64,000 nucleotides of DNA from Sulfurospirillum sp. UBA12182 (GCA_002742765.1 DLUF01000059.1:125-64124); one strand, 5' to 3'; counted from the first letter of the stretch, positions 338-58,582 are shown. The notes: generated by a model from the letters alone, not told the origin. Translations and numbers: made by a program.

Positions 338-1141
338 ATGAATGAAAAAATCGAAAAATTTCTCATAGAAAACTCTCAAGATGGTTTTGTATCTATGCTT
401 ACATGTAAAGAGTGTATGAAGCAATTTTCACTCAACTTACCAAGTGTAGAAAAAAAAGCATTTGAGTTAGGAATCTCTCCTTTACGCTACAAAAGAAATC
501 AAACTTCCATTAGTGTAGAAAACCAATTCAAACTTTTTAATGCTCACGTTGCCATCATAGGTTGTGGTGGATTAGGAGGGCATATAGCTGAAAATCTAGC
601 ACGATTAGGAGTTGGGAATCTTCGTTTATTTGATTTTGATGTTTTTGAAGAACACAATTTAAACCGTCAAAATTTTTCTCATTTTGGAGTTCTTGGAAAA
701 GAGAAAGCTTTGGTTGTTAAAGAGGGTTGCGAGAGAATCAATCCAGCTTTACATGTAAAAGCTTTTGTTCAAAAATTTGATGTTCAAAAAGACTTTGGCT
801 TGATAGAAGATTGTGATGTGATTATCGATGCTCTTGATGACCCACAAATCAAACTAGAACTTAGCTTTACATGTAAAGATAAAAAGAAGGATTTTATACA
901 TGGAGCAATCGCTGGTTTTAACACACAACACGCTAGTTGCATAAGCTTAGAACATCTGTATAAAAACGGAAGCAAAGGGATAGAAACAAGTGTTGGTAAT
1001 CCAGCTTTTACAGTCTCTTTTGCAGCATCTTTACAAAGCTTAGAGTGTGTGAAACTCATTTTGGGGCTCAAAGAGAATTTAGAAGGGAAAATCCTTCTTT
1101 GTAATTTGTTAGAAAATGAGTTTATTCTTCTTGATAATTAG
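338..1141 (+). CDS. ThiF/MoeB/HesA-family E1-like adenylyltransferase
   Basis: ATG at 338 is preceded by AAGGA (326-330); an alternative ATG is at 314. Nucleotide-binding motif IIGCGGLGGHIAENLARLGVGNLRLFDFDVFEEHNLNRQ. Divergent from the beta-grasp gene. Confidence 0.75.
   Translation: MNEKIEKFLIENSQDGFVSMLTCKECMKQFSLNLPSVEKKAFELGISPLRYKRNQTSISVENQFKLFNAHVAIIGCGGLGGHIAENLARLGVGNLRLFDFDVFEEHNLNRQNFSHFGVLGKEKALVVKEGCERINPALHVKAFVQKFDVQKDFGLIEDCDVIIDALDDPQIKLELSFTCKDKKKDFIHGAIAGFNTQHASCISLEHLYKNGSKGIETSVGNPAFTVSFAASLQSLECVKLILGLKENLEGKILLCNLLENEFILLDN
398..409. repeat. Iterated palindrome copy (1 mismatch)
   Basis: cTTACATGTAAA in the thiF-like CDS, read as LTCK. Confidence 0.9.
748..759. repeat. 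Iterated palindrome copy (perfect TTTACATGTAAA)
   Basis: In the thiF-like CDS, read as LHVK. Flanks are AGC...AGC. Confidence 0.95.
866..877. repeat. Iterated palindrome copy (perfect)
   Basis: Full 14-mer CTTTACATGTAAAG at 865-878, in the thiF-like CDS, read as FTCK. Confidence 0.95.
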
Positions 1142-2259
1142 AGGTTGTATTGGACTGATTTGTATGTTCTATCAAATCTAAAAGTGATGAGGTTTTCTAA
1201 GATACCAAAGAGAATCATAAAAGTTATAAAACTGCTTCCACCATAACTAAAAAAAGGTAGAGGGACTCCTACAACAGGAGCAAAACCTATGGTCATAGAG
1301 ATGTTAACCCCCATATACACAAACACTAAAAGTCCTATGGCAGTAGTGATGACTTGACCGAAGTAATCTTTATGAAATTTGATGTTGAGCGTTATGAGGT
1401 GCACTATCAAAAGAGCATAAGTGCTAATGAGTATCAAAGCGCCCCAAAATCCAAATCTCTCAACATAATAAGCGAAGATAAAATCACTCGTGGCGATGGG
1501 TAAAAATTTAAAATGAGTCTGTGTTGCGTCAACTTTGTCTTTACCATCAAGTCCACCGCTACCAATTGCTATGATGGATTGTTTGACGTGATAGCTAGGT
1601 TTTTCTGAGACAAAATCTAAAATTCTTTTTTTTTGGTAGTCGTGTAGTGAATTGTACAAAAACGGGCCACTTATACCGATGCCAATCGCTAAAATAATCC
1701 AGATTTTTTTATTGACCCCGATAACAAAAAGAGTGACATAACCAACTATAAGTAGTACCATAGCAGTTCCCAAATCAGGCTCTTTTGCTATGAGAAAAAA
1801 AGGTAAAAGTATGTAAAAACTGAGTTTAAAAAAATCTTTCCAACCATAACCTTCAGTATCTGGAGGATTGTGTTTGATGAGATACGCTAACATAAGGATA
1901 AAGGCTGGTTTAAGTATCTCTGAGGGTTGGATAGTAAAGTGAACAAAAGGGATTTCGAGCCATCTTTTTGCACCTAGTTTAGAAATTCCAAAAAATTCTA
2001 CACTTACAAGAAGAGCAACGCTTACCCAGTAAAAAAAAGGGATAAACCACTCAAGCTTACGAATGGGCATAAGAAAAAAGAAGAGGAAAGTTGCAAATCC
2101 AACAGTAAAATAGACTATCTGTTTGTTAGCAAGAATAGAATTTGCTTCCGAGACAAGATAGAAGGATAAAGCAACAATAGGAATAACCAACATAGGAATT
2201 AAAAAATCAAAATGTGTTAAGATACGCCTATCGATTTGTAACAAGCCAAAATTCCTCAT
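1138..2259 (-). CDS. rodA: SEDS-family peptidoglycan glycosyltransferase (RodA/FtsW type, probably RodA)
   Basis: 373-aa polytopic membrane protein with the SEDS hallmark ...VPLPFFSYGGSS... Its 3' end overlaps the convergent thiF-like stop by 4 nt. Confidence 0.7.
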   Translation of the reverse strand: MRNFGLLQIDRRILTHFDFLIPMLVIPIVALSFYLVSEANSILANKQIVYFTVGFATFLFFFLMPIRKLEWFIPFFYWVSVALLVSVEFFGISKLGAKRWLEIPFVHFTIQPSEILKPAFILMLAYLIKHNPPDTEGYGWKDFFKLSFYILLPFFLIAKEPDLGTAMVLLIVGYVTLFVIGVNKKIWIILAIGIGISGPFLYNSLHDYQKKRILDFVSEKPSYHVKQSIIAIGSGGLDGKDKVDATQTHFKFLPIATSDFIFAYYVERFGFWGALILISTYALLIVHLITLNIKFHKDYFGQVITTAIGLLVFVYMGVNISMTIGFAPVVGVPLPFFSYGGSSFITFMILFGILENLITFRFDRTYKSVQYNL

Positions 2260-2295
2260 AAAGTTTTTGCAAGTATAACAAAATTAGGGAGAATA

Positions 2296-4441: not shown

Positions 4442-4446
4442 TCTTA

Positions 4447-5622
4447 ATGCCAAATTTTCATGCTAAAGAGGTCGTTGTCCCAAAATTACCAGCATTTTAT
4501 GGGGAAACAACTTTTCATTTTAAAGCGACTGCTGCACGAGGAGAAGAGCTAATCTTTGTTACATGTAAAAACGAAGATTTTCTTCTTAAAATTCAAAAGC
4601 ATAAAGATTCTTATCTTCTAAAAGGAGATAAGATTTCTCGTCCTACCCAAGTTTCTATCTTGCAAAAAGCTTTAAGAGATTTAAGAGATTTGTGTAGTAT
4701 TCAAGCTTATAACTCCAATATAGATATTTTTAAAGACAGAAGAGTTGAAATATCACCTTATCTGAAAAAAATAGAGTATTTTGCAAATGAGTTTGAAGAA
4801 AAAAGAGATATCCTAATCGAAATAGGCTTTGGAAGTGGAAGACATCTACTTTATCAAGCAAAGAAAAATCCAAATAGTCTCATAGTAGGAATTGAAATCC
4901 ATAAACCCTCTATCGAGCAAGTTTTAAAGCAATGTGAATTACAAAATATAAGCAATGTTTTGATTTTAGATTATGATGCAAGAGTTTTCTTAGAATTTCT
5001 TCCTTCCAACAGTGCTAAACAAATTTTTGTTCATTTCCCTGTTCCTTGGGATAAAAAACCCCATCGAAGAGTTATGAGTGAAAGGTTTATAAATGAAGCA
5101 AAGAGAGTTTTGCAACCACAAGGTACTTTAGAGTTAAGAACAGATAGTGACAACTACTTTGAGTACTCTTTCTTTGAGATGATGAAACAAAAAAAGATAG
5201 AGGTTAGAGTCAATAAAAATCGAGATTTAGAAATCAGTAGCAAATACGAAGATAGATGGAAAAGGCAAGAAAAAAACATCTATGATATAACCATGTATAA
5301 CTTTGAGGACTCGCCAAGTATAGCAAAGATAGAAAAGCTAAGATTTGAAAATCCAGTTGATTTTCGTTTGCTTAGAGAAAAATTTGAAAAGAAAGTTATC
5401 AGAGGAGTAGACTTTTTTGCGCACTTTGAAGAGATATTTGAAATTGATGCACAAAGTGGATTTTTAAGAGTCTCTTTTGGTGGTGGAGAGAGAAATGAAC
5501 ATAACTATATCTATATTACCCCTTCTTCGACTGCATATTTTCCTGATAATGTTTTAGCTACAAAAGATAATGTAAATGCACACAAACTAATAGAAGAGAT
5601 ACTACATGGAACATGTCATTAA
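4447..5622 (+). CDS. trmB: tRNA (guanine-N7)-methyltransferase with long N-terminal extension
   Basis: SAM-MTase motif IEIGFGSGRHL and the TrmB-type FPVPWDKKPHRRV in the C-terminal half. Confidence 0.75.
   Translation: MPNFHAKEVVVPKLPAFYGETTFHFKATAARGEELIFVTCKNEDFLLKIQKHKDSYLLKGDKISRPTQVSILQKALRDLRDLCSIQAYNSNIDIFKDRRVEISPYLKKIEYFANEFEEKRDILIEIGFGSGRHLLYQAKKNPNSLIVGIEIHKPSIEQVLKQCELQNISNVLILDYDARVFLEFLPSNSAKQIFVHFPVPWDKKPHRRVMSERFINEAKRVLQPQGTLELRTDSDNYFEYSFFEMMKQKKIEVRVNKNRDLEISSKYEDRWKRQEKNIYDITMYNFEDSPSIAKIEKLRFENPVDFRLLREKFEKKVIRGVDFFAHFEEIFEIDAQSGFLRVSFGGGERNEHNYIYITPSSTAYFPDNVLATKDNVNAHKLIEEILHGTCH
4558..4569. repeat. Iterated palindrome copy (1 mismatch)
   Basis: gTTACATGTAAA in trmB, read as VTCK. 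Confidence 0.9.
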
Positions 5623-13962: not shown

Positions 13963-15397
13963 AGAAATATTTTTACTATTTTTTACATGTAGCCTTCTTT
14001 TTGGGTCTACTGATTATCTAAAAGAGTTACAAGAGTATGATAAGGCGATTGTGACTGCAAACCAAGATGAACTTTTGCGGGTACATCATAGTCTTAAAAG
14101 TATCTATATCCATTCGATAGTAACACACGATGATGTTCTTAAAAAAGAGGTTTTACAAAGGCTTGTTCAAAGCTCCAAAGAGTTAAATTTTGACAAAGAA
14201 CATTATGAAAAAGAGTTAGAAACCCTTTTAAAAGTAGAAAAAAAATCTCCTATCCCTAAAAAAGAGCAAAAAAAAGAAGAGAGAACTCTAGTCCCTAAAG
14301 AAGAAAAAACAGAGCCTATAAAAAAGGTGCAAAACTCCTCTTCTAGTACCTCAAATCTTTTGCAGCATCTTCTTTTAAAAGAGGATATGCTCTATTTAGA
14401 ATTTGATAAAGCACTAGAAACAAAAGAGATAAAATACTTTGTTTTAAAATCAAAAACAAGCCTCAAAGAAGTTTATGATATCAAAGGGCAGTTACCCAGA
14501 AAATATGACTTTAAAGCTCCTAATGGTTTAAAAAAGCTAAGGCTTGCTCAATTTGATAAAGATACCATAAGAGTTGTTTTAGAGAGAGAAAACCCTCTGG
14601 AAAAGTCCTCCAAAAAAATTTCAGATAAGCAGATTAGGATATATTTTAATGCTTCAAAAGAGGAGAAAAAAGTATCTGATGATGTGGTGAAACCAAAACT
14701 TTATACACAAATTAAATCACAAAAAACCATCGTGATTGATGCTGGACATGGGGGGAAAGATGGTGGTGCGGTTGGTTATAAGGGGAAAATAGAAAAAGTC
14801 GCTGTTTTATCTATCGCTTTAGCTACTGGGAAAGAGTTGAAAAAAAGAGGTTATAAGGTTTATTATACAAGAGCAAAAGATATCTTTATCCAGCTTAGAG
14901 ATAGAACAAAATTTGCAAATGATAAAGATGCTGATATCTTTCTCTCTATACATGCAAACGCAGCAGCTCAAAAAAGTCAGTATCTCTCGCATAAAGGTTT
15001 AGAGACTTACTTCTTATCTCCAGCTAGATCCCAAAGATCAAAAAATATAGCCGCATTAGAAAATAAATCAGATATCGCTGAGATGGATTATTTCTCTAAA
15101 CAGACCTTTTTAAATGTCTTTAATCGAGAGAAGATAATCGCGGCAAATAAACTAGCACTAGACGTACAACAAGGAATGCTCAATTCTCTTAGAAAAAGTT
15201 ACAAAGTTACTGATGGGGGAGTAAGAGAAGCACCATTTTGGGTTTTAGTAGGAGCGCAAATGCCCTCAATCCTCATAGAAGTAGGCTACATTACAAACCC
15301 AACAGAAGCTATGCGTATGTTTAATGTCAATTTTCAGCATAAAATTGCTAACGGGATTGCAGATGGGATTGATAGCTATTTCTTAAAAAATAACTAA
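13946..15397 (+). CDS. amiA: N-acetylmuramoyl-L-alanine amidase
   Basis: Signal peptide, K/E-rich linker and a C-terminal Amidase_3 block (IVIDAGHGGKDGGA...FLSIHANA...EVGYITN). Confidence 0.75.
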   Translation: MAKIAREIFLLFFTCSLLFGSTDYLKELQEYDKAIVTANQDELLRVHHSLKSIYIHSIVTHDDVLKKEVLQRLVQSSKELNFDKEHYEKELETLLKVEKKSPIPKKEQKKEERTLVPKEEKTEPIKKVQNSSSSTSNLLQHLLLKEDMLYLEFDKALETKEIKYFVLKSKTSLKEVYDIKGQLPRKYDFKAPNGLKKLRLAQFDKDTIRVVLERENPLEKSSKKISDKQIRIYFNASKEEKKVSDDVVKPKLYTQIKSQKTIVIDAGHGGKDGGAVGYKGKIEKVAVLSIALATGKELKKRGYKVYYTRAKDIFIQLRDRTKFANDKDADIFLSIHANAAAQKSQYLSHKGLETYFLSPARSQRSKNIAALENKSDIAEMDYFSKQTFLNVFNREKIIAANKLALDVQQGMLNSLRKSYKVTDGGVREAPFWVLVGAQMPSILIEVGYITNPTEAMRMFNVNFQHKIANGIADGIDSYFLKNN

Positions 15398-41207: not shown

Positions 41208-42036
41208 GAATACTCAAAACCCTTTTTATCTCTTCGTTTGAACCAAAAAAACAAGGTGTTGTATCGTGAGGATGCATAGGGGCTAAATCTAAAAGACGAT
41301 TTTTCCCATCTATTGCCATTCCTCCTGCTTTTTCAAAAACAAAAGCAAAAGGGAAAACTTCAAAAATCATTCTTAACTTTCCTTTTGGAACATCACTGGT
41401 AGATGGATAAGAAAAAAGACCACCACCTTTAAGAAGTATCTGGTGCAAATCAGGAACCATTCCTCCAGAGTAGCGAAGTCTATATCCATCTTGGAAGATA
41501 GCATCTACTAAAGCTTTATGCTCTTTTGACCAACCTTTTTGTGTAGCACCTGGGGCATTGAGTTTGCCTTTTTCACCTAAATGAATCTCTTTTTGGAAGA
41601 TAAACTCATTTTGTTTATTTAAACGGTACATGTACACTTTGTCTGTTGCGATAACTAGCTCAACTCTTGGTCCATAAACCACATAAACACTCGCTTTTAA
41701 GCTACTACCAGCATAATCGCCTTCATAGATTCCAAAAATCGAACCTACACTAAGATTTACATCAATCAAACTTGAACCATCAAGCGGATCGTATCCGACT
41801 AGATACTTACCATTTACATGTAAAGGTGTAGCTTCCTCTTTTTCTTCACTTACAATCTCTTTAACGCTTAAAACACTTTGAAACTCTTCTTCTATAATCA
41901 AATCGCTTTTGATATCGAGTTTTAGCTGTGTATCGCCTGTTGCATTGTGATGGTCTGAGTAACCAGTGTCATCATACTCTATGGCTTCTTTTATCCTAAT
42001 TGCGCTTCTTTTTATCGCTTCAAATATCTCAGTCAT
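41200..42036 (-). CDS. fbp: Fructose-1,6-bisphosphatase class 1
   Basis: Start set to ATG 42034-42036 (MTEIFEA...), 7 nt after GGAG. ...DPLDGSS..., ...RYSGGMV.DLHQ.... Confidence 0.85.
41813..41824. repeat. Iterated palindrome copy (perfect)
   Basis: In fbp, read as LHVN. Confidence 0.95.
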
Positions 42037-43859: not shown

Positions 43860-44498
43860 TTACTTTTTTAACTCTTCTTCTATCAAATCAACCAACTCTT
43901 GGTAACCAAACTTTTCAAGTGCTCTACCATTGACAAAATAAGAGGGTGTTTTGTTTACATGTAAAGCTTTTGCATCTTCTAAATCTTCTTTGATGAGGTG
44001 AGTTATTTTTTCAGATTGAACATCAGCTTTTAGCTTGGAAACATCTATCCAAAAATTTTCTAAAAGTTTCCAAACAGCTTGTTTATCAACAACATGATTG
44101 TTTATCCAGTATCTTTGGGTTGCAAAGAAAAATTCTAAAGTTTCAAGATAGAGATTTTGCTCTCTTGAAGCCTCGATGATTTTTACTACTTCATCAGAAT
44201 TTTCGTGAAATGGGGCATATCTGAGGATAAGTTGGATTTGTTCTGGATGTTTTTTCATAATCTCTTTGACAAAAGGGTAAAACTGCGCACATGTACCACA
44301 AGCTGGATCAAAAAACTCAACTAGTTTGACTTTTGCGTCATCACTTCCTATCTTAAAGGAGTAGGGCTTTATCAAAAGAGTCTCTTTTGAAGTGCTTTGC
44401 GTAAAATTAGAGAGATTTTTGTAGTAATAAGCTCCCAATGCAAACAATAAAATAACTGATATAACAGAAATGACAATAAGCGTTTTTTCATTTTTCAT
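43860..44498 (-). CDS. DsbA/BdbD-like thiol:disulfide oxidoreductase
   Basis: N-terminal anchor and thioredoxin fold with active site CGTC. Confidence 0.7.
   Translation of the reverse strand: MKNEKTLIVISVISVILLFALGAYYYKNLSNFTQSTSKETLLIKPYSFKIGSDDAKVKLVEFFDPACGTCAQFYPFVKEIMKKHPEQIQLILRYAPFHENSDEVVKIIEASREQNLYLETLEFFFATQRYWINNHVVDKQAVWKLLENFWIDVSKLKADVQSEKITHLIKEDLEDAKALHVNKTPSYFVNGRALEKFGYQELVDLIEEELKK
43954..43965. repeat. Iterated palindrome copy (perfect)
   Basis: In the dsbA-like CDS, read as LHVN. Confidence 0.95.
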
Positions 44499-46523: not shown

Positions 46524-46883
46524 ATGAAAAAATCACTCATTGTAGGGATTTTAACCCTATTCATAGGTGTTTTACATGTAAATGCTTCTTCTAAAGTAGA
46601 TGAGCAAACAGGGCTTATCATAGCACCTGGTTTTGAAGAAGTGAAGACAAACTGTACTGTGTGTCACTCGGCAAAGTTTATCACTTTGCAAAGAGGAGAT
46701 AAAGCCTCTTGGTTATCTATGATACGATGGATGCAAAAAACACAAGGACTTTGGGAGTTTGACAAGCCTTTAGAAGAGACGATTTTGACGTATCTTGCAA
46801 CAAACTATCCACCTGGGAAAGCTTCAAGACGTCCAAATCTAAAACATACAGCACTACCTCCAAACCCTTATGAGAAGCCTTAA
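46524..46883 (+). CDS. sorB: Monohaem cytochrome c subunit (SorB-like)
   Basis: ATG 46524 lies after AAGGAG. Signal peptide and a single CTVCH haem site. Confidence 0.65.
   Translation: MKKSLIVGILTLFIGVLHVNASSKVDEQTGLIIAPGFEEVKTNCTVCHSAKFITLQRGDKASWLSMIRWMQKTQGLWEFDKPLEETILTYLATNYPPGKASRRPNLKHTALPPNPYEKP
46571..46582. repeat. Iterated palindrome copy (perfect)
   Basis: In the sorB signal peptide, read as LHVN. Confidence 0.95.
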
Positions 46884-46895: not shown

Positions 46896-48531
46896 TTCTA
46901 AACTCATCTGTTTTTTGAGGATTTGTCAAATCTTCAAAAACAGAGGCGAGGGATACTTGATCTTGTAAAATACGTCTATATATAATGTAGTTTGCCAAAA
47001 CTTTTTTACCATATCTTCGACTTTCATCATATCCTACTAACTCCATACTCATATATGGTTCATATCTTCCTTTTTGAAAAAGACCACTTAACAACAGTCT
47101 TTTTGTAAATCCTATACCACCGTTGTAAGCATAAGCAACAAATAAAGGGTGATGGAGATATTTTTCGAGATAATCCAGATGTATATCTGCAAACAGATAA
47201 GCAGTCTCAGGATTGAACATATCTTCAAGGTCAAAATCTATAAAACCTTTTCTTTTGGCTATGTCATTTGCTAAAAAAGGCATAAACTGCATCATCCCAA
47301 GAGCATAAGAGGTAGATATGGCTGAGGGGATAAAGCGACTCTCTTGTCTAGCGATACTTAAGATAAGAGCTTTTCGATGTATCGAGTCTGATTTTAGAAA
47401 TTGTTGATAAGGTAGAGGGAAATAGTGGTCTTTGTATCCACTAGCCTTTTCCATGATAAATGAAAAATGAGGAAGCGAGGAGCCATAAAGATAGATGTTA
47501 GCTAAAGCTTCTAACTCTTCTTTACTTTTGCCTTTAAAACTCTCTTCTAACTTTATCCATGCAAAGGGGTCTTTCTCATCAAAAAAAGGATGAGGTTCAT
47601 ATGCCTTTGCTATCATGATATTGTTTTTTTTCTTACCTGCTAGAATCGTATAAATGTTTAAATCAAAGCTCTCTTGGAGCATTTTTTTGTATTTTTGGTC
47701 ATCACTAGCAAGATACTGCCAAAAAAGAACTTTATCTTTATCCATCTGGAAATAAGCTTTTTTATAAGCCTCTTCAAAGTACAAAAAAGCTTGCTGTTTT
47801 TTCTCTAACTTTAAAGCGTTTAAGCCCAAATAAAAAAGACTTAAGTGGTTTAAGGAAGCTTCTTTTGGATTTAAAAAGAGAAGTGATTTTTGTACTTTTT
47901 GTAGTTTGATATCAGTGACAATATGTTTTATAGTACTGTTTATACGTGAATCTTTAGAGAGTTCTTCGATTTTTTCTTTTGAGATGATTTTATCAAAGTG
48001 TTCTCTTCTAAATTTTGCACCAACGGCATTGAAAACTTCAAAAAAAGCATCATTACCACCTTGCATCATGCTCTCATAAACATTTTCTTGTGAAAGTATT
48101 TGTAAACTCAAAGCCTCTTTATAAGGAGCTAGTTTTTTAGAGAGCTTGGCAAGAAGAGTTTTATCGAGTTTTGTTGCTTCATAAACACTAAGCCCAATAG
48201 CGATACAATCTCTATCTTCATCTTTTAAAAGCTCTTCTGTTTTCATCAAGATACACAAAGAAGCCTTTTTTATCCCCTCATCATCTAGTTTTGAGGCAAA
48301 AGCATGAAAAAGTTTCCAGTTCATCCTTGAAGCATGTTCTAGGAGTTTCCACGCATCTTCACGAGAACAAAACTCAGAGTTAAGATACTCATATATATAA
48401 AAATCTTTTGCAACACTTTTTGGTTTATCCTCAAAAAATGAGATATCCTTAGGGGTGCTAGCGAAGCTTACATGTAAAGGCAAAAAGCAAAGAAAAAGAG
48501 TAAAAAAACTTTTTTTAAAGGGCATTGGCAA
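46885..48531 (-). CDS. slt: Soluble lytic murein transglycosylase (Slt family)
   Basis: Signal peptide, superhelical N-domain and an SLT catalytic block ARQESRFIP...GMMQFMP...AYNGG. Confidence 0.75.
   Translation of the reverse strand: MPMPFKKSFFTLFLCFLPLHVSFASTPKDISFFEDKPKSVAKDFYIYEYLNSEFCSREDAWKLLEHASRMNWKLFHAFASKLDDEGIKKASLCILMKTEELLKDEDRDCIAIGLSVYEATKLDKTLLAKLSKKLAPYKEALSLQILSQENVYESMMQGGNDAFFEVFNAVGAKFRREHFDKIISKEKIEELSKDSRINSTIKHIVTDIKLQKVQKSLLFLNPKEASLNHLSLFYLGLNALKLEKKQQAFLYFEEAYKKAYFQMDKDKVLFWQYLASDDQKYKKMLQESFDLNIYTILAGKKKNNIMIAKAYEPHPFFDEKDPFAWIKLEESFKGKSKEELEALANIYLYGSSLPHFSFIMEKASGYKDHYFPLPYQQFLKSDSIHRKALILSIARQESRFIPSAISTSYALGMMQFMPFLANDIAKRKGFIDFDLEDMFNPETAYLFADIHLDYLEKYLHHPLFVAYAYNGGIGFTKRLLLSGLFQKGRYEPYMSMELVGYDESRRYGKKVLANYIIYRRILQDQVSLASVFEDLTNPQKTDEFRKKP
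48467..48478. repeat. Iterated palindrome copy (1 mismatch)
   Basis: cTTACATGTAAA in the slt signal peptide, read as LHVS. Confidence 0.9.
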
Positions 48532-49937: not shown

Positions 49938-50021
49938 GAGAATAGAGTAGGTTTATAAATCATTTGTATCTCTTTAAGTAGAACTTGAGTAAAATTGTCG
50001 TAAGCTCAAATGTTATTATCT

Positions 50022-50033
50022 TTTACATGTAAG
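50022..50033. repeat. Iterated palindrome copy (1 mismatch), intergenic
   Basis: TTTACATGTAAg, 9 nt upstream of the 50042 ORF. Confidence 0.9.
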
Positions 50034-50041
50034 GGTTTTGT

Positions 50042-51052: not shown

Positions 51053-51065
51053 TAAAAAAAATAGT

Positions 51066-51077
51066 TTTACATGTAAG
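51066..51077. repeat. Iterated palindrome copy (1 mismatch), intergenic
   Basis: TTTACATGTAAg, between the higB promoter region and the glnS terminator. Confidence 0.9.
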
Positions 51078-51083
51078 AAGTAA

Positions 51084-51113: not shown

Positions 51114-53363
51114 TTAAGAGCTTAGTTTTTGCTCTACTAATTGGTTTACGATTTTTGGATTTGCTTTTCCTGCTGTTGCTTTAAGAACAGCTCCTACAAA
51201 GAAACCAAAAAGATTTTTATTGCCTGCTTTGTATTTTGCAATGTTGTCTTGATTTTTTGCTATAACTTCATCGATGAGTGGTTCGATAACATTAGGATCA
51301 CTTATCTGTACTAAGCCTTTAGATTGGACTATATCTTCTGGATTTTCACCATTTTGTACCATTTGCTCAAAAACTTGTTTTGCTATTTTACTAGATATCG
51401 TTTCCTCATCTATCATTTTCACAAGCCCAGCTATTTGGGTTGGAGTAAACTTGATAACTTCATTTTGTTTTAGCTCTCTTGCCACTTCGTTTGCTACTAT
51501 GTTTGCTAAACTTACAGGGGAGTTTAAGATATTTAAAGACTCCTCGTAAAAAGAGGATAACTTGGCATCACGAGCGAGGATATTTGAGATTTCAGAGTTT
51601 AAGTTTAGTTCATTTATATATCTATCATAGAGTTTTAGCTCACTCTCACTCATAGGAGCTACTTCTCCCTCAACAACCACTTTTTTTGTTTGTGTTGGTT
51701 TCTCAGCTGGTTCTTTTTTCTCGACTTTTTTATTCCATGAGTCTTTAAGTCCTACTATCTTGTTAAAAACAGGCTTTGCATCGGTGTAGTCAATCGGGTC
51801 GGCGTAAAAATAGCCTTGTCTTTCAAACTGGAATCTCACATCAGGTTTTTGCTCGATTACAGCAGGTTCTATGAAGGCATTTTTGATTACATGTAAAGAA
51901 TCAGGATTCAAATCCTCTAAGCTTTCTGGCATATCTACTTTGTAAAGTCTCTCATAAAGTCGTAGCTCTACTTGTTTAGCATGTTTTGCACTTACCCAGT
52001 GGATGGCACTTTTGACTTTGATACCACTGGTGTCATTTCCACTGCGAGAGTCAGGATGGTATACCGCTTTTATCTGTTTGATAACACCATTTTCATCTTT
52101 GATAACTTCTTTACATGTAAGGATATAAGCTCCTTTAAGTCTAACACTTTGATTGGGAGTTAAGCGGTAGTAGCCCTCAGGTGGGGTTTCCATAAAATCG
52201 TCTCTTTCTATGTAGATGGTGTTTGAAAAAGGAAGTTTTCTTGAACCCTCTTTAGGAACATCATGCGGGTAGTAAGAAGCTTCAATCTCCTCTTCACCTT
52301 CATAATTTTCGATTGTTACTTCAAGTGGGTCAACTACACACATAACACGTGGAACTTTTTTATTCAAATCATCTCTGATACAAAACTCAAGTTGTGCAAC
52401 ATCGACCATAGAGTTTGCTTTTGCTATACCGATTTGTTCACAAAAATTTAAAATCGCCTCTGGTGTATAGCCTCTTCGTTTATAACCAGCGATTGTTGGA
52501 AGTCTTGGGTCATCCCAGCCATTGACGTATTTGCCATCGACTAACTCTAAAAGTTTTCTTTTGCTCATAACTGTATAGTTCATACCAAGGCGTGCAAACT
52601 CATACTGATAAGGTCTAGGAGGAGTAAGTTCAAGTGCGTCTAAAACCCAGTCATAGATATCTCTGTTGTTTTCAAATTCTAAAGTACAAATCGAGTGCGT
52701 AATCCCTTCGATATAATCACTCAAACAATGCGCAAAGTCATACATCGGATAGATGCACCACTCATCACCTGTTCTAAAATGGTGTGCATGACGGATACGA
52801 TAAAGCAGCGGGTCTCTCATCTTCATGTTAGCTGCACTCATATCAATACGCGCTCTTAAAACATGTTCTCCATCTTTAAACTCACCGTTTTTCATCCGCT
52901 CTAAAAGTTCTAAGTTCTCCTCTACGGAACGTTGTGCATACTTACTTCTTCGGCCAGGTTGCGTGATAGTTCCTCTATACTCTCTTATCTCTTCTTCGTT
53001 TAAGCTATCTACATAAGCTTTACCCATTTTAACAAGCGCTACTGCGTATTCATAGATTTTAGGGAAGTAGTCACTAGCAAAGCGAACACTCTCATTCCAC
53101 TCAAAACCAAGCCAAGTTACAGCATCTTTGAGAGCTTCAACGTAGCGCATATCTTCTGTTGTAGGGTTGGTGTCATCCATGCGAAGGTTACAGTGTCCTT
53201 GATAATCACGTGCGATACCAAAGTTTATATATATAGATTTTGCATGTCCGATATGTGGGAAACCATTTGGCTCTGGTGGAAATCTTGTTATGATTTTTGT
53301 ATATTTACCAGCTTTTAAATCCTCTTCGACTTTGACGCGTAAAAAATCTTTGCTCTCACTCAA
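51114..53363 (-). CDS. glnS: Glutamine--tRNA ligase with C-terminal GatB/YqeY-like domain
   Basis: TTG start. RFPPEPNGFPHIGHAKS (HIGH), VMSKRKL (KMSKS) and the GlnRS beta-barrels, then about 180 extra aa resembling the GatB C-terminal/YqeY domain. Confidence 0.85.
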   Translation of the reverse strand: MSESKDFLRVKVEEDLKAGKYTKIITRFPPEPNGFPHIGHAKSIYINFGIARDYQGHCNLRMDDTNPTTEDMRYVEALKDAVTWLGFEWNESVRFASDYFPKIYEYAVALVKMGKAYVDSLNEEEIREYRGTITQPGRRSKYAQRSVEENLELLERMKNGEFKDGEHVLRARIDMSAANMKMRDPLLYRIRHAHHFRTGDEWCIYPMYDFAHCLSDYIEGITHSICTLEFENNRDIYDWVLDALELTPPRPYQYEFARLGMNYTVMSKRKLLELVDGKYVNGWDDPRLPTIAGYKRRGYTPEAILNFCEQIGIAKANSMVDVAQLEFCIRDDLNKKVPRVMCVVDPLEVTIENYEGEEEIEASYYPHDVPKEGSRKLPFSNTIYIERDDFMETPPEGYYRLTPNQSVRLKGAYILTCKEVIKDENGVIKQIKAVYHPDSRSGNDTSGIKVKSAIHWVSAKHAKQVELRLYERLYKVDMPESLEDLNPDSLHVIKNAFIEPAVIEQKPDVRFQFERQGYFYADPIDYTDAKPVFNKIVGLKDSWNKKVEKKEPAEKPTQTKKVVVEGEVAPMSESELKLYDRYINELNLNSEISNILARDAKLSSFYEESLNILNSPVSLANIVANEVARELKQNEVIKFTPTQIAGLVKMIDEETISSKIAKQVFEQMVQNGENPEDIVQSKGLVQISDPNVIEPLIDEVIAKNQDNIAKYKAGNKNLFGFFVGAVLKATAGKANPKIVNQLVEQKLSS
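51886..51897. repeat. Iterated palindrome copy (1 mismatch)
   Basis: aTTACATGTAAA in glnS, read as LHVI. Confidence 0.9.
52110..52121. repeat. Iterated palindrome copy (1 mismatch)
   Basis: TTTACATGTAAg in glnS, read as LTCK. Confidence 0.9.
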
Positions 53364-53430: not shown

Positions 53431-53446
53431 AAGAGCCAAAAAAGTT

Positions 53447-53458
53447 TTTACATGTAAA
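53447..53458. repeat. Iterated palindrome copy (perfect) supplying a stop codon
   Basis: Read in its third frame (TAC ATG TAA) as the last two codons and stop (...LYM*) of the AraC-Ogt gene. Confidence 0.95.
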
Positions 53459-54299
53459 GGTTTTTATTTATCGATTCATATGCTATGAGTATCTTTTTGC
53501 GCTCAATTCCCCATCTATACCCACTCATCGCACCACTTTTTGAGATAACTCTATGACAAGGGATAAGATAGCCTATATGGTTTTTACCGATAGCACTTGC
53601 AACTGCTCGAACTGCTTTTGGTCTTTCTAAAAAATTTGCCATATCTTGGTAGGTGGTGATAACACCATTTGGTAGATTTAAAAGAGCTTTCCAGACGTTG
53701 ATTTGAAAGTTTGTACCTTTGACAAGCAAATTATATTTTTTGTTTTTTATAAAAATGTTATCTAAGTATTCGCGTGCCTTTTCGCCATCGTGGATGAGAG
53801 TTGCTTTTTCCCAAAGCTCTTTAAATCTAGCAAATATCATCTCTTGATTGTTATCTATAAATCCCAAATAGCATATCCCTTTATCAGTAAAACCAACTAA
53901 CGCTAATCCAAAAGGTGTTTTTCCATAACCATAAGTTATGCGGACATCTTTGCCTTTTTCTCGCCACTCTTTTGGAGTTACTCCGATGAGGTTTACAAAA
54001 AGCTCATGTAATCTGCTAGTACTTGAAAGACCGATATCCAAGCTACTCTCTAAGATAGAGCGAGACTCTTTTAAATGCTCCTTTGCATAGTTGAGTGTTA
54101 CAGAGTGCAAAAACTGTTTTGGCGTAACTCCGACATACTCTTTAAAGACTCGGATAAAATGAAACTTACTCATACCTATGTTTTTTGCTATCTCATCTAT
54201 GCTAGGTTGGTTTTTAAAGTTGTTGTCTATGTAGTGTATGGCCTTTTCTATTTGACGGTAATTGTTTGATAAATCAACGTTAGATAAAGAAATCATCAC
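53448..54299 (-). CDS. AraC-type HTH regulator fused to O6-methylguanine-DNA methyltransferase (Ada/Ogt-like)
   Basis: N-terminal AraC HTH (SIDEIAKNIGMSKFHFIRVFK). C-terminal MGMT domain with IPCHRVI. Confidence 0.8.
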   Translation of the reverse strand: MMISLSNVDLSNNYRQIEKAIHYIDNNFKNQPSIDEIAKNIGMSKFHFIRVFKEYVGVTPKQFLHSVTLNYAKEHLKESRSILESSLDIGLSSTSRLHELFVNLIGVTPKEWREKGKDVRITYGYGKTPFGLALVGFTDKGICYLGFIDNNQEMIFARFKELWEKATLIHDGEKAREYLDNIFIKNKKYNLLVKGTNFQINVWKALLNLPNGVITTYQDMANFLERPKAVRAVASAIGKNHIGYLIPCHRVISKSGAMSGYRWGIERKKILIAYESINKNLYM

Positions 54300-54400: not shown

Positions 54401-56675
54401 AGATGGATAACTCTTCTCTTACTTGTTTTACAGCTTTAACCATATTGATAAGACTAGGTTTGACTTCGTCCCATTTTCTTGTTTTAAGCCCGCAATCTGG
54501 ATTTATCCAAAGTTGCTCTTTTGGTAAAACTTCGAGTAAAAGTTTTATCTGCTTTGTTATCTCTGCAACACTAGGAACTCTTGGGCTATGGATATCATAC
54601 ACTCCTGGACCTACTTCTTGTTTGTAGCCCACTTTTTTAAAGACTTTTAAAAGTTCATTGCCACTTCTTGCAGTCTCTATGGATATGACATCGGCATCCA
54701 TCGCTTCGATAGTTTTGATAATATCATTAAATTCACTATAACACATATGTGTATGGATTTGAGTTGTAGGAAAAGCTTTTGCAACAGCTATCTTAAAATC
54801 TCTTACTGCCCAGTTTTCATACTCTTTAATTTTCGATTTGCGAAGAGGATATCCTTCTTTGAAAGCGGCTTCATCGACTTGGATGATTTTGATGCCTGCT
54901 TTTTGTAGATCATCTATCTCATCACTGAGCCCTAAAGCTATCTGCTTGGAGACTTCTGAGCGAGCTAAATCATCTCTTACAAATGACCAGTTAAGTATAG
55001 TCACAGGACCAGTGAGCATGCCTTTCATGATTTTGTCTGTTTTACTTGCTGCATAGGTAATCCAATCAAGTGTCATCGCTTTAGGACGACTGATATCTCC
55101 GTAGATAAAAGGAGGTTTGACACATCTACTACCATAGCTTTGCACCCAACCGTTTTGGCTAAAACCATATCCTTTAAGTTGTTCCCCAAAGTACTCAACC
55201 ATGTCATTTCTCTCAGGCTCCCCATGCACTAACACTTCCAGCCCGCACTCTTCTTGAAAAGCTACACACTCATCAATGTAGTTTTTCATCACATTTTCGT
55301 ACTCCTCTTTTGAGATGAGATTTGCTTTATAATCTCTTCTCACTTTTCTAAGCTCAGCTGTTTGAGGAAATGAACCGATAGTGGTTGTTGCTAAATTTTT
55401 ATAACCTAAAAGTTCTTTTTGGAGTTTGATTCTTTTTTCATAAGGTTCTACTCTTTCAAAAAGGCTCAAACTTGCCACTCTTTGTTGTACGCTTTTATCG
55501 TGTATAAGCGAGGAAGTTTTGCGACTTTTTGCGCTTTGTTCGTTTGCTTCTAGTGCTTTTTGTTCTTTTGTATCAAGGTTTGTTTTAGAAAAGAGAGTCG
55601 CACATAGTTTTATCTCATCTAGCTTTTCAAGAGCGTAACTAAGCCAATCTTTTATCTGTGGATCCATCTTGTTTTCATATTTGAGTGTAAAAGGTACATG
55701 TAAGAGTGAACAAGATGAAGAGACGATGATATCTTCTTTTTGGACTACTTTTGCTATCTGTTCTAAAAGATTTAGCGTCTTTTGTAAATCACTTTTCCAG
55801 ATATTTCTTCCATCAATGACACCAGCGATGAGTTTTTTACCGCTTTTTTTGATAAATTCCAAAGATTGAAGATTTTCTTTGCCATATAAAAAGTCCAAGC
55901 CTAAAGCCCAGATAGGAGTATTGACAAAAATCCCAGTCGCTTCGTTTGAGTGTTCAAAGTAAGTCGTGACGATGAGTTTGAGTTTAGCGCTTATGGAACC
56001 TAGTTTATCGTAAGTTGGTTTGATAAGGCTTAGAACTTTTGTTTCATTATCTTTTACAAAGATAGGCTCATCTATCTGTATGTAAAGTTCATCTTCAAGC
56101 AAGGAAAGTTCTTCTAAAAGCTTGATATAAAGCGGAAGTATGTTTCCTAGTAATTCATATGTATCTTTGCCATCAACTCTTTTTGAGAGTCCTAAAAACG
56201 TAAGAGGACCTATAAGATTGATTTTGGTCTTTAACCCTAAAGCTTTTGCTTCTTTATACTCTTGTATGACTTTTGTACTATCAAGTTTGTAGTTATCTTT
56301 AAGGCTAAGTTCAGGAACTATGTAGTGATAGTTCGTGTTAAACCACTTTGTCATCTCCATAGCTGGGAGCTGTGAAGTGCCTCTTGCCATCGCAAAATAA
56401 AGTTCTTCTTTTTGTAGATTTGCAAATCTTTTAGGAATCGCACCTAACATAAAAGCAGTATCTAGCATATTGTCATAAAGGCTAAAGTCGTTAGAACTGA
56501 TAAAATCAATCCCTGCTTCTTTTTGGTAGAGCCAATGTCTTTTTTTAAGTGCACTTGCCTCTTTTTGCAGCGTATCAAATGAGCACTCACCTGCCCAAAA
56601 ACTCTCTAAAACTTTTTTTAATTCTCTTTTTTCACCGATTCTTGGAAAACCGATTACATAACTGTTATTTGACAT
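54399..56675 (-). CDS. metE: Cobalamin-independent methionine synthase
   Basis: 758 aa, two Meth_synt domains. ...HTHMCYSEF..., ...NPDCGLKTR.... Confidence 0.9.
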   Translation of the reverse strand: MSNNSYVIGFPRIGEKRELKKVLESFWAGECSFDTLQKEASALKKRHWLYQKEAGIDFISSNDFSLYDNMLDTAFMLGAIPKRFANLQKEELYFAMARGTSQLPAMEMTKWFNTNYHYIVPELSLKDNYKLDSTKVIQEYKEAKALGLKTKINLIGPLTFLGLSKRVDGKDTYELLGNILPLYIKLLEELSLLEDELYIQIDEPIFVKDNETKVLSLIKPTYDKLGSISAKLKLIVTTYFEHSNEATGIFVNTPIWALGLDFLYGKENLQSLEFIKKSGKKLIAGVIDGRNIWKSDLQKTLNLLEQIAKVVQKEDIIVSSSCSLLHVPFTLKYENKMDPQIKDWLSYALEKLDEIKLCATLFSKTNLDTKEQKALEANEQSAKSRKTSSLIHDKSVQQRVASLSLFERVEPYEKRIKLQKELLGYKNLATTTIGSFPQTAELRKVRRDYKANLISKEEYENVMKNYIDECVAFQEECGLEVLVHGEPERNDMVEYFGEQLKGYGFSQNGWVQSYGSRCVKPPFIYGDISRPKAMTLDWITYAASKTDKIMKGMLTGPVTILNWSFVRDDLARSEVSKQIALGLSDEIDDLQKAGIKIIQVDEAAFKEGYPLRKSKIKEYENWAVRDFKIAVAKAFPTTQIHTHMCYSEFNDIIKTIEAMDADVISIETARSGNELLKVFKKVGYKQEVGPGVYDIHSPRVPSVAEITKQIKLLLEVLPKEQLWINPDCGLKTRKWDEVKPSLINMVKAVKQVREELSI

Positions 56676-57210: not shown

Positions 57211-58542
57211 ATGTCTTTAAATATGTTATGTAACCAATGTTCTATGAGTATGCTAGGTGGTTGTGGCTCAAAAGGACAAGAGGTAGGAACTTGTGGAAAA
57301 GATAAAAATCTAGCACTTTTGCAAGATATCATGATTTATGGTTTAAAAGGTTTGAGTGCTTATAGAACTCATGCAGATGAATTTGGTGCAGATACAAAAG
57401 AAGTAGATGATGTAATGGCTGAAACACTTTACTTTACTTTGACAAATGTAAACTTTAGCTTTGATGACCATATCGCGCAACTTATGAAGATAGGACAAGC
57501 TGGAGTGAGGATGATGGATATCTTAAGTGAGGCTCACACGAGCCATCTAGGTATCCCAACACCAGTGCGTGTTAGCCAAAACAAGGCTGAGGGAAAAGGT
57601 ATCTTAGTAAGTGGGCATAACCTCGATATGCTACTTAAGCTTTTACAAGATACTGAAGGTAAAGGGATTAACATCTATACTCACTCAGAAATGCTTCCAG
57701 CACATGGCTATCCAGAACTTAGAAAGTACCCACACCTCAAAGGAAACATAGGAAAATCTTGGTTTGATCAAAATGAACTGTTTGAAAAATGGAATGGCAC
57801 TATCATAGTAAATACAAACTGTATCGTTCCTCCAACTGCAAAGTCAACGTATACAGATAGACTTTATACTTACGATATCGTGGGTATTAGTGAGGGCAAA
57901 AAGATAGTAGGAGATGACTTTAGTGAAGTGATAGCACAAACTCTAACACTACCAGATGTAGATAATTTTAACTCAGATGAGACACTTAGCACAGGACATC
58001 ACTATAAAACCATCCTGACATTAGCTCCTCAAATTTTAGAAGCGGTACAAAGCGGTAAAATCAAACAGTTTTTTGTTATCGCTGGTTGTGATGCTCCAGG
58101 AAGCGGTGGAGAGTATTATAGAAAGATGGCTGAAAATCTACCAAAAGATTGTGTGATAGTCACTTCTAGTTGTGGTAAATTTAGATTTAATGATATAGAT
58201 TTTGGTGAGATTGAAGGCACAGGAATACCAAGATATTTAGACTTAGGACAGTGTAATGATAGTAATGGTGCAGTGCATATCGCTCTTGCCATCAGCCAAG
58301 CTTTAAATGTACCAGTAAATGACCTTCCTATCGCGATAGTGCTTTCTTGGATGGAGCAAAAAGCAGTGCTTATCCTCTTAGCTCTGTTTAGTTTGGGTAT
58401 CAAAGATATCTATCTTGGACCAAAGCCACCACAGTTTGTCAATGATGATATTTTCGCATTTTTACAGCAAAACTTCAATCTTCATTTGACAGAAACGAAA
58501 AACTATGAGAATGACCTTAAAAACCTTTTAATTACAGCATAA
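57211..58542 (+). CDS. hcp: Hybrid cluster protein (short class)
   Basis: Start moved to ATG 57211, after TAGGAG (57198-57203). N-terminal Cys cluster CNQC...GGCG...GTCGKD. 443 aa. Confidence 0.85.
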   Translation: MSLNMLCNQCSMSMLGGCGSKGQEVGTCGKDKNLALLQDIMIYGLKGLSAYRTHADEFGADTKEVDDVMAETLYFTLTNVNFSFDDHIAQLMKIGQAGVRMMDILSEAHTSHLGIPTPVRVSQNKAEGKGILVSGHNLDMLLKLLQDTEGKGINIYTHSEMLPAHGYPELRKYPHLKGNIGKSWFDQNELFEKWNGTIIVNTNCIVPPTAKSTYTDRLYTYDIVGISEGKKIVGDDFSEVIAQTLTLPDVDNFNSDETLSTGHHYKTILTLAPQILEAVQSGKIKQFFVIAGCDAPGSGGEYYRKMAENLPKDCVIVTSSCGKFRFNDIDFGEIEGTGIPRYLDLGQCNDSNGAVHIALAISQALNVPVNDLPIAIVLSWMEQKAVLILLALFSLGIKDIYLGPKPPQFVNDDIFAFLQQNFNLHLTETKNYENDLKNLLITA

Positions 58543-58547
58543 AACTT

Positions 58548-58582
58548 CTTTACATGTAAGGATTGACTCCTTACATGTAAAG
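58548..58582. terminator. Perfect 15-bp hairpin built from two copies of the iterated palindrome, between convergent hcp and hycI
   Basis: CTTTACATGTAAGGA-TTGAC-TCCTTACATGTAAAG, with every stem position Watson-Crick. It fills the 41-nt gap between the two stop codons (58542 / 58584). No strong U-tract. Confidence 0.55.

Follow-up and report, generated by a model that had tools for sequence, protein, structure and literature searches.

The highly iterated palindrome HIP1 (GCGATCGC) has been unexplained for thirty years and is, to our knowledge, known only from cyanobacteria. It is a hyper-abundant octamer whose observed-to-expected ratio (O/E) is 15-300, according to Xu et al. 2018 (PMC5861425). 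Methylated HIP1 raises transformation up to 100-fold or more (bioRxiv 10.1101/2024.09.10.611283), and a role as uptake sequence has been proposed for HIP1, the abundance of which correlates with the DNA-uptake machinery (bioRxiv 10.64898/2026.06.24.733823). A methylated palindrome is also read in the Campylobacterota: in PMC10046745, which cites Beauchamp 2017, Campylobacter jejuni is described to import only DNA that carries N6-methyladenine (m6A) at RA(m6A)TTY. Here, we describe a palindrome with the octameric core TACATGTA that is iterated through a stretch of 64,000 nucleotides (GCA_002742765.1, DLUF01000059.1:125-64124; in the following called the window) from Sulfurospirillum sp. UBA12182. 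We have hardly any doubt that this motif is a real, maintained and genus-wide HIP-type element of Sulfurospirillum, and nothing seen so far in unrelated, culturable bacteria parallels the HIP1 puzzle more closely.

The initial annotation of the window, made from the sequence alone, had counted 31 copies of the 8-mer TACATGTA, 26 of the 10-mer TTACATGTAA and 13 perfect copies of the 12-mer TTTACATGTAAA. An exact search gave the same numbers, compared with 0.95, 0.14 and 0.01 copies expected from dinucleotide shuffles. The hexamer ACATGT is present 38 times (15.1 expected from the same shuffles) and only seven of these lie outside the long motif, at exactly the positions that had been listed. 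Nearly all site coordinates were reproduced as well; only a weak copy that had been given as 55692 begins at 55693. The preference for C at position -1 and G at position +1 of the 12-mer was also found again (C in 13 of 31 copies, G in 19 of 31). Since the annotation had called for a codon-aware null, synonymous codons were shuffled within each gene, a procedure that preserves every protein and the codon usage of each gene; the five copies that are not wholly in open reading frames (ORFs) were held fixed. The enrichment survived: 9.1 ± 2.0 copies of the 8-mer (31 observed), 7.4 ± 1.5 of the 10-mer and 1.6 ± 1.1 of the 12-mer were obtained, and the maxima in 300 runs (15, 13 and 6, respectively) never reached the observed counts. 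Among the over-represented 8-mers of the window, TACATGTA leads by a wide margin, with an O/E of 35 in an order-3 Markov model (33-35 across the nulls); the remaining top 8-mers are fragments of the same motif, down to an O/E of 5.9, at which the first unrelated word follows.

As the initial annotation had stated, 26 of the 31 copies (84%) are located wholly within ORFs and one lies over a stop codon (53446-53459); the other four are intergenic, and the copy density in intergenic DNA is about 2.5 times that in coding DNA. The host genes are mutually unrelated and found on both strands; they encode, among others, ThiF, TrmB-like, CinA-like, Adk, RecN-like, TatD, HisB, LptC, MetRS, fructose-bisphosphatase, GlnRS and MetE proteins. 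Repeated 12-14-mers often stem from duplicated or mobile DNA, and for this reason hidden paralogy and the spread of a very small mobile element within the genome were weighed together with chance. Neither type of shuffle came near the observed counts, and the enrichment recurs in every sampled Sulfurospirillum lineage. Beyond about 7 bp from the centre the copies are no longer similar, and they reside in unrelated genes, which excludes paralogy and mobile elements; moreover, the copies are found in unrelated housekeeping genes, without insertions or deletions, where relatives carry other codons. Chance or paralogy is thus excluded as the origin of the motif, and the earlier statement that neither gene duplication nor a mobile element is involved holds, because the copies come from point substitutions within orthologous genes. 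The described families of repetitive extragenic palindromes (REP), bacterial interspersed mosaic elements (BIME) and miniature inverted-repeat transposable elements (MITE) differ accordingly: they are imperfect palindromes that are intergenic, 20 bp to several hundred bp in length and transposed, whereas the motif is 84% intragenic, 8-14 bp long and born by substitution.

In the window organism the full form of the motif is CTTTACATGTAAAG, a perfect palindrome of 14 bp, and the base preferences of the 31 copies fade about 7 bp from the centre. There are 22 sites in the window within two mismatches of CTTTACATGTAAAG, and all of their mismatches are in the flanks and none in the 8-bp core; an even spread of mismatches would put about seven of the 12 one-mismatch sites into the core. 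Neither the Sulfurospirillum loci (79 versus 107 expected) nor the metagenome loci (76 versus 88 and 94 versus 95 expected) show a surplus of cores with one mismatch. An all-or-none core is thus combined with graded, symmetric flanks. Within genes, 17 copies are read as x-TTA-CAT-GTA (L-H-V), eight as ACA-TGT (T-C) and a single, core-only copy as Y-M-Y; the L-H-V and T-C frames are the two that avoid the motif's own TAA.

The motif has left its mark on the proteins. L-H-V occurs 18 times in the proteins of the window where 2.9 are expected (six-fold), and F-T-C-K occurs three times where 0.05 are expected. Seventeen of the 18 L-H-V are encoded by TTACATGTA, for which codon usage predicts 7%. 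In an alignment of GlnRS, the copy at 51885 is present only in the window and in Sulfurospirillum sp. UBA6810 and UBA1314, whereas four other relatives have L-R-I, L-T-I or L-K-V at this site; amino-acid changes were therefore needed. The second copy in glnS, at 52109, was built upon a conserved (T/S/A)-C dipeptide, and in the alignment of the CinA-like protein F-T-C-K stands in place of F-T-G-Q and two L-H-V copies in place of unrelated residues. Insertions or deletions at copy sites were not seen in the alignments of glnS, the CinA-like gene and other orthologs. The copies were made in place by point substitution, and some of these substitutions changed amino acids. The force acts at the level of the DNA and overrides protein sequence and synonymous drift.

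Once made, the copies are kept. Inspection of orthologous positions, as the initial annotation had proposed, comprised 12 pairwise comparisons of orthologous DNA (70-78% identity) and revealed a perfect core in 32 of 66 aligned copies, compared with 7.2 expected from the retention rate of all 8-bp windows in the same alignments; the 30 bp flanking each side of a copy reach an identity of only 61-77%. In 18 cases the window and a relative both have L-H-V, and in 15 of these all nine bases agree, as against 18% for other codon triplets that encode the same amino acids. The copies are islands of conservation. At greater distance they turn over, since only 0-1 of 4-6 copies coincide between the clade of the window and that of S. 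barnesii.

A Campylobacterota origin had been supposed for the window, and its closest relatives are indeed Sulfurospirillum. By GlnRS, the closest genomes among the matches listed are Sulfurospirillum sp. UBA6810 (83%), UBA1314 (80%) and Kmv13 (77%), and the source-named homologs of the CinA-like protein are all from Sulfurospirillum, followed by Halarcobacter. An identical CinA-like protein is encoded on metagenome contigs from an oil-production facility and in several Logan assemblies. Judged from the nearest relatives of these two proteins, the window organism is an uncultured Sulfurospirillum (Campylobacterota, Sulfurospirillaceae).

The core is present at a density of 0.34-0.79 per kb in all 12 loci sampled from 11 Sulfurospirillum lineages, which include six uncultured ones; pooled (267 kb), these loci have 122 cores where 3.2 are expected (O/E 38). 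The loci are the window, UBA6810, UBA1314, Kmv13, three contigs of metagenome-assembled genomes (MAGs), S. oryzae, S. diekertiae (CP023275), S. deleyianum DSM 6946 (CP001816) and two regions of S. barnesii SES-3 (CP003333). By extrapolation (0.39 per kb x 2.5 Mb) a genome would contain about 1,000 copies. By contrast, no more than 0-1 cores per locus were counted in two Sulfurospirillaceae MAGs (the genome with XULI22-1 scaffold_8, and HN12.bin.12), in Halarcobacter (two loci) and in Sulfurimonas (one locus). One of the MAG loci is syntenic with positions 4-24 kb of the window, and the motif is missing from the MAGs at this syntenic locus or at glnS. This abrupt phylogenetic on/off boundary offers a clean contrast in which genes for readers or writers of the motif could be sought by phyletic profiling.

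The core is shared, but the flanks are species-specific. The dialect of Kmv13 is CTTACATGTAAG, and TTTACATGTAAA is entirely missing from its locus; contig L270 has the dialect cTACATGTAagg, with 14 copies in 6 kb. A scan of metagenomes for close pairs of the motif gave 120 contigs, of which 44 are motif-rich, with 291 cores in 332 kb where 8.6 are expected. Among the metagenome contigs, L275, L220 and L299 are of low GC content and have about two core-only copies per kb. CcsBA of L275 shares no more than 52-55% identity with CcsBA of named Sulfurospirillum, and thus a deeper relative carries the motif too. Contigs L275 and L335, whose CcsBA proteins are 70% identical, have 13 copies in 6.6 kb and 3 copies in 23 kb, respectively, a roughly 15-fold difference in density, which suggests that gain, amplification or loss of the element can be fast.

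Every property of HIPs that could be tested at the level of sequence is found here, and the designation of the motif as HIP1-like by the initial annotation was apt. Like HIP1, the motif is a hyper-abundant palindromic octamer (O/E 35-38), occurs in coding and non-coding DNA independent of gene family and of mobile elements, deviates only at its outermost positions, has palindromic extensions that are species-specific and is conserved among orthologs above background. In HIP1, shorter, nested palindromes, GATC (m6A) and CGATCG (5-methylcytosine, m5C), are methylated by a methyltransferase without restriction partner; a putative counterpart in the motif is CATG (m6A), for which the data come from S. 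barnesii. The motif is nevertheless not HIP1 proper, because its sequence is unrelated, AT-rich and centred on CATG, and its carriers belong to another phylum, the Campylobacterota. Its range is narrow and comprises one genus and a near relative, with 0-1 copies per locus in two family-level relatives, and its density (0.34-0.8 per kb) is low when compared with the range known for HIP1. Furthermore, only one nested methylation is known for the motif, and no methyltransferase specific for 6 or 8 bp.

With a second, independent HIP-type element of unrelated sequence in another phylum, a single case becomes a comparison. Whatever is shared with HIP1, namely an all-or-none core, dialects, the override of protein sequence and, putatively, a partnerless methyltransferase acting on a nested palindrome, is a candidate for the mechanism. 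Moreover, carriers with complete genomes are in culture: S. barnesii, for which a methylome is published, S. deleyianum and S. diekertiae. The initial annotation knew of no previous description, and literature searches on the motif, on Sulfurospirillum methylation and on over-represented palindromes, which did not extend to subscription-only papers, gave (apart from the S. barnesii data below) no description of the 8-mer, the 12-mer or a Sulfurospirillum palindrome or methylome.

The initial annotation had pointed to CATG, the centre of the motif, as a methylation target, and this is borne out by published single-molecule real-time (SMRT) sequencing data. Five methylated motifs are listed for S. 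barnesii SES-3 (Blow et al. 2016, PMC4752239, supplementary tables). CATG carries m6A at 99.1% of its sites; the responsible enzyme, M.Sba3II (Sulba_2268), is without a listed restriction partner, whereas the GATC and type I systems of the same organism do have listed partners, and 6- or 8-bp-specific methylation is not reported (PMC4752239). In two S. barnesii loci, TACATGTA accounts for 17 of 159 CATG (10.7%). Taken together with the 99.1% modification, this means that at most about 8% of the copies are unmethylated. A search for DNA methyltransferases and endonucleases in the window and in about 1 Mb of fetched loci gave nothing but an RNA methyltransferase similar to TrmB, a protein similar to Ada and an Eco57I-type enzyme (contig L265).

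Methylation of the central tetranucleotide calls restriction to mind. An 8-bp-specific or methyl-dependent enzyme could have the motif as its target, or the motif could be the context in which CATG escapes a CATG cutter, so that CATG survives mainly inside TACATGTA. CATG is indeed scarce overall (O/E 0.68 in the Sulfurospirillum loci), and ACATGT outside the motif is scarce in the window (7 versus about 15 expected). However, the avoidance of CATG is equally strong in motif-free outgroups (O/E 0.76; L010, L011 and L013), and the pooled loci hint that ACATGT outside the motif is near expectation (28 versus about 30). Restriction targets are avoided (Rusinov et al. 2015, PMC4687349), whereas the motif is enriched 35-38-fold, and escape from cutting restores the expectation at most and cannot drive amino-acid changes. 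In addition, the CATG methyltransferase of S. barnesii is listed alone, with no endonuclease, and an 8-bp methylation motif is not reported for this organism. The case for a restriction-related origin is weak, and we regard such an origin as very improbable.

Our best explanation is that the motif serves as a methylated tag of self DNA. Each copy would be a double-stranded recognition site with the all-or-none core TACATGTA and graded, symmetric flanks, whose central CATG would carry m6A on both strands. A symmetric, presumably dimeric protein would recognise the methylated palindrome in natural transformation and thereby tell conspecific DNA, so that self-type DNA would be preferred in uptake and/or recombination. 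This bias would act as a molecular drive which, together with selection, could keep about 1,000 copies in a genome. The reader protein is hypothetical and we infer the link to transformation from other systems: the two effects published for HIP1, on transformation and in correlation with the uptake machinery, and the import of RA(m6A)TTY-methylated DNA by C. jejuni make an uptake tag the leading candidate. The complete statement, HIP-type element plus tag function in natural transformation, is put forward tentatively and is somewhat less probable than its negation.

The comparison with C. jejuni is close in several respects: the phylum is the same, m6A sits in the middle of a palindrome, and the methyltransferase, CtsM, is partnerless and defines there which DNA is accepted in transformation. 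On the other hand, RAATTY is a degenerate 6-mer that is not reported to be hyper-abundant or to reshape proteins, whereas the word described here has 8-14 bp. The DNA uptake sequences (DUS) of the Neisseriaceae and the uptake signal sequences (USS) of the Pasteurellaceae resemble the motif in length (a word of 10-14 bp in our case), in a density of about one per 1-3 kb, in their mostly intragenic location in the least costly frames, in their dialects, in partial conservation among orthologs and in hairpin-forming pairs at the ends of transcription units. The dialects and the pairs at transcription-unit ends fit a function as uptake tag. The recombination hotspot Chi is asymmetric, read on one strand and co-oriented with replication, whereas a palindrome has no orientation; a Chi-like effect on recombination has been suggested for HIP1 (bioRxiv 10.1101/2024.09.10.611283) and the motif may have one.

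Several observations weigh against the tag. A literature search gave no report of natural transformability or competence in Sulfurospirillum. DUS and USS are non-palindromic words of 9-12 nt that need no methylation, and a perfect palindrome of up to 14 bp is unlike these known uptake sequences. USS genomes hold many one-mismatch copies, and the core described here, unlike USS, has no halo of such copies. The methylome is that of S. barnesii and not of the window organism, and all densities were determined on loci of 6-64 kb and not on whole genomes. CATG is also methylated (m6A, by M.SdeAIII) in Sulfurimonas denitrificans (PMC4752239), and the one Sulfurimonas locus sampled, from another species, has no core. 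Methylation alone does therefore not explain the motif, and its 8-14-bp specificity must come from something other than the CATG methyltransferase. Finally, the motif is not confined to core genes. Two homologous contigs with inovirus-like prophages (L159, 11.9 kb, and L166, 10.4 kb; GC 33%; Zot-like protein, pIV secretin and transposase), the host of which was not identified, have seven and four TACATGTA, which is the density of a Sulfurospirillum chromosome, and copies are also found among toxin-antitoxin genes of S. barnesii and S. deleyianum. This weakens a strict expectation that the tag is restricted to the core genome.

If the motif is nevertheless a methylated uptake or recombination tag, methylation-dependent recognition of self DNA in the Campylobacterota would reach beyond C. 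jejuni, and methylated tags would open a practical route to better genetic tools for organohalide-respiring Sulfurospirillum.

The symmetry of the copies would suit a protein with a different task. In this case, the motif would be the binding site of an abundant nucleoid-associated or chromosome-organising protein, perhaps a SeqA-like reader of (hemi)methylated CATG, and the chromosome would be structured or segregated by means of about 1,000 copies. Symmetric, species-specific flanks are expected of a co-evolving dimeric DNA-binding protein, and the all-or-none core, the strong conservation of copies inside genes and the frequent, closely spaced pairs are in line with such a role. The sites parS, matS and those of Noc and SlmA are palindromes of 13-16 bp, often intragenic, as is the motif, but they are regional and number tens per genome, compared with about 1,000 copies of the motif. 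A density of about one per 2-3 kb is 10-100 times that of parS, matS, Noc and SlmA sites and counts against such a protein. So does the methylation of at least about 92% of the copies in S. barnesii, since the site can then not be permanently occluded. The same role was argued for HIP1 from periodic spacing (Xu et al. 2018, PMC5861425). The roughly 10-bp phasing of pairs seen here is contaminated. It is significant, but stems in part from unrelated iterons and tandem repeats with units of 30 and 41 bp (L255, L325, L239 and L302), and was rejected, as was a peak of distances at 20-22 bp, which is made by pairs with symmetric spacers that form one long hairpin.

The second explanation of comparable weight does without a cellular function. 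In the model of Elhai for HIPs, a methylation-linked, motif-specific repair or biased gene conversion corrects near-matches, here to TACATGTA, and the copies are its footprint. The missing halo of decayed cores, the copies in prophage-like and toxin-antitoxin DNA and the restriction of deviations to the outer positions, as for HIP1 (Elhai 2015, PMC4390886), are what such a process would leave behind. In addition, TATATGTA/TACATATA, one C-to-T step off the core, is found once in the Sulfurospirillum loci where 12.1 are expected, and in loci fetched after the idea had been formed it is absent (2.5 expected), compared with 6 versus 9.8 in outgroups; other transition neighbours of the core are not depleted. 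However, this depletion was not cleanly replicated in metagenome loci (21 versus 15.9 expected overall, 4 versus 6.3 in loci of the same dialect), and the P-values are optimistic because of the dependence between orthologous regions. What is known of the methylation is m6A and not m5C, to which SMRT sequencing of native DNA is blind; with no m5C known, the classical logic of deamination and repair is left without a substrate. By a flux argument, which is itself inferential, correction at one position lifts the motif only about three-fold and not 38-fold, so that a directed T:G-to-C:G correction can only be part of the story, and the species-specific flanks out to ±7 are left unexplained. Both a nucleoid-protein site and a by-product of repair or conversion are serious rivals of the self-DNA tag, each of them unlikely when taken singly.

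Dcm/Vsr of Escherichia coli, which enriches CCWGG and depletes CTWGG, is the obvious parallel to the missing C-to-T neighbour TATATGTA (1 versus 12.1). The effect in E. coli is modest, whereas the motif is 38-fold enriched over 14 bp, its methylated base is an adenine and the depletion is not cleanly replicated. Since the loss of TATATGTA was not found again in the pooled metagenome loci, a Vsr-like footprint was discarded; it is an unexplained hint and not evidence. The most radical variant is an active writing of the motif, in which an enzyme coupled to the CATG methyltransferase would turn 7-of-8 matches into TACATGTA (T:G to C:G at position 3) and thereby inscribe genes regardless of the cost to the protein. 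We consider this rather improbable. If true, it would be a sequence-specific conversion drive of a kind undescribed beyond the very modest effect of Dcm/Vsr, and possibly the missing mechanism of HIPs. The counts of TATATGTA were made in the pooled loci (window, L007-L009, L207-L210, L332-L334 and L336), and in the same loci another word, TTCATGTA, was seen to be depleted (4 versus 11), with 13 versus 5 in outgroups.

The copies are not randomly placed with respect to genes. Their median distance to a gene boundary is 130 bp, compared with 244 bp for random positions (P about 0.01), and 14 copies are within 100 bp of a boundary where random points give 7.2. Among 88 copies, seven pairs are within 40 bp (about 1.7 expected). 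The pair at 58548-58582 forms a stem of 15 bp with a loop of 5 nt (-20 kcal/mol as RNA, z = -5.5) that is terminator-like on both strands, and many of the metagenome pairs, 20-22 bp apart, have symmetric spacers and form hairpins of 30-35 bp. Single or paired copies could thus act at the level of RNA, as hairpins that end transcription or stabilise mRNA ends, and the terminator-like pair between convergent genes, the hairpin-forming pairs of the metagenomes and the proximity to gene boundaries would agree with this. However, 26 of the 31 copies are single and intragenic, and single copies fold no better than shuffled sequence when tested as RNA hairpins (z = -0.1 to +0.7). Strict two-fold symmetry and a perfect 8-bp core are needless for an RNA signal, and hairpins of pairs are expected as a side effect, since a palindrome is by its nature complementary to each further copy of itself. 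An RNA-level function is accordingly weakly founded and most improbable. Scans of the window with Rfam and for tRNAs revealed no RNA genes.

Table 1 Copies of the palindrome in the window and clusters of its 14-bp form on viral contigs. Coordinates refer to the window unless a contig is named; + and - give the strand.
Position	Sequence	Location	Reading and remarks
397..410	gcTTACATGTAAAG	ThiF-family gene 314-1141 +	L-T-C-K
747..760	CTTTACATGTAAAa	ThiF-family gene	A-L-H-V-K
865..878	CTTTACATGTAAAG, perfect 14-mer	ThiF-family gene	F-T-C-K
4557..4570	tgTTACATGTAAAa	TrmB-like methyltransferase gene 4447-5622 +	V-T-C-K
13981..13994	TTTTACATGTAgcc, core-only	amidase_3 gene 13946-15397 +, 38 nt in	F-T-C-S
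15428..15441	CTTTACATGTAAAa	CinA/MoCF-like gene 15398-16129 -, near 3' end	L-L-H-V-K; outgroup residues unrelated
15842..15855	perfect 14-mer	CinA/MoCF-like gene	S-L-H-V-K; L-H-V here common to S. barnesii, S. diekertiae and S. oryzae
15862..15875	gTTTACATGTAAAG	CinA/MoCF-like gene, 20 bp from the copy at 15842	F-T-C-K; other Sulfurospirillum clade F-T-G-Q
17012..17025	aagTACATGTAAAG, weak	NicO-family gene 16958-17698 -	S-L-H-V-L
19401..19414	perfect 14-mer	Aq_1262-family gene 17695-19443 -, 35 nt in	F-T-C-K
21541..21554	gaTTACATGTAAAa	adenylate kinase gene 21475-22044 -	L-L-H-V-I
26090..26103	CTTTACATGTAAAa	RecN-like SMC_N gene 25666-27204 +	A-L-H-V-K
28821..28834	gTTTACATGTAAga	TatD gene 28475-29251 +	R-L-H-V-R
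31417..31430	tcTTACATGTAAAG	hisB 31268-31840 +	L-T-C-K
31701..31714	CTTTACATGTAgAG	hisB	T-L-H-V-E
32401..32414	CcTTACATGTAAca	LptC-like gene 32322-32849 +	T-L-H-V-T
38572..38585	perfect 14-mer	hypothetical gene 37975-39057 -	A-L-H-V-K
39702..39715	tTTTACATGTAAAG	metG 38919-40856 -	A-L-H-V-K
41624..41637	cggTACATGTAcac, core-only	fructose-bisphosphatase gene 41200-42048 -	sole copy in the Y-M-Y frame
41812..41825	aTTTACATGTAAAG	fructose-bisphosphatase gene	P-L-H-V-N; core kept in Sulfurospirillum sp. UBA6810
43953..43966	gTTTACATGTAAAG	thioredoxin-like gene 43860-44498 -	A-L-H-V-N; core kept in UBA6810
46570..46583	tTTTACATGTAAAt	SorB-like cytochrome c gene 46518-46883 +	V-L-H-V-N
48466..48479	gcTTACATGTAAAG	lytic transglycosylase gene 46885-48531 -, 58 nt in	P-L-H-V-S; orthologous sites of UBA6810 and UBA1314 without copy
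50021..50034	tTTTACATGTAAgG	intergenic, just upstream of small ORF 50042-50326	
51065..51078	tTTTACATGTAAga	intergenic, between glnS stop codon and higB-like gene	adjoins promoter-like site 51052-51025
51885..51898	gaTTACATGTAAAG	glnS 51114-53363 -	S-L-H-V-I; from L-R-I to L-H-V; common only to UBA6810 and UBA1314
52109..52122	CTTTACATGTAAgG	glnS	L-T-C-K; core in 4 Sulfurospirillum lineages, in 0 of 3 outgroups
53446..53459	tTTTACATGTAAAG	over stop codon of Ada-like gene 53448-54299 -, upstream of glnS	
55692..55705	aggTACATGTAAga, weak	metE 54399-56675 -	L-L-H-V-P; core kept in Sulfurospirillum sp. Kmv13
58548..58582	paired copies 58548-58561 and 58569-58582	between convergent genes 57154-58542 + (hybrid-cluster-protein-like) and ORF 58584-59033 -	symmetric spacer
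358-548 and 4358 (L108); 4415-5207 (L093); 890-1504 (L105); 6971-7944 (L098)	CTTTACATGTAAAG clusters	viral contigs	

The copies of the window are compiled in Table 1. The intergenic copy downstream of glnS is situated just upstream of a strong promoter-like site (TTGACA, 16 nt, GATAAT) that belongs to a gene pair encoding a HigB-like toxin and a helix-turn-helix antitoxin (50429-51016 -). The site of insertion of this pair has glnS on one side and a truncated GluRS/GluQRS-like gene (48808-49878) on the other. The GlnRS of the window itself is of the type fused to a YqeY domain (NF011291), and its nearest relatives beyond the Campylobacterota are, among the matches listed, only about 50% identical (Gemmatimonadota, Bradymonadales).

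The last 5.4 kb of the window (58584-64000) encode a group-4 [NiFe]-hydrogenase or a formate-hydrogenlyase-like complex, with HycH, 20-kDa, 30/49-kDa and antiporter-like subunits. The operon has no copy of the motif; at the average density of the window only about 2.6 would be expected, and the zero count is thus not significant alone.

When viral contigs were scanned for the 14-mer, most matches were lone chance ones, next to operator-like clusters in unrelated phages; this allows no conclusion on self and foreign DNA. The clusters of CTTTACATGTAAAG are local, operator- or iteron-like and not genome-wide, and the contigs, of 28-48% GC, are unrelated. Tandem arrangements were also encountered on two further contigs, with the core in every unit of a 38-bp tandem repeat on one and in iterons spaced by 21 bp on the other (L219 2397-2900 and L235 747-1026); these are phenomena separate from the motif. 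On contig L270, six copies within 120 bp (2453-2570) build up a big composite palindrome, about 300 bp upstream of a gene for a serine invertase of the Mpi family (2869-3483).

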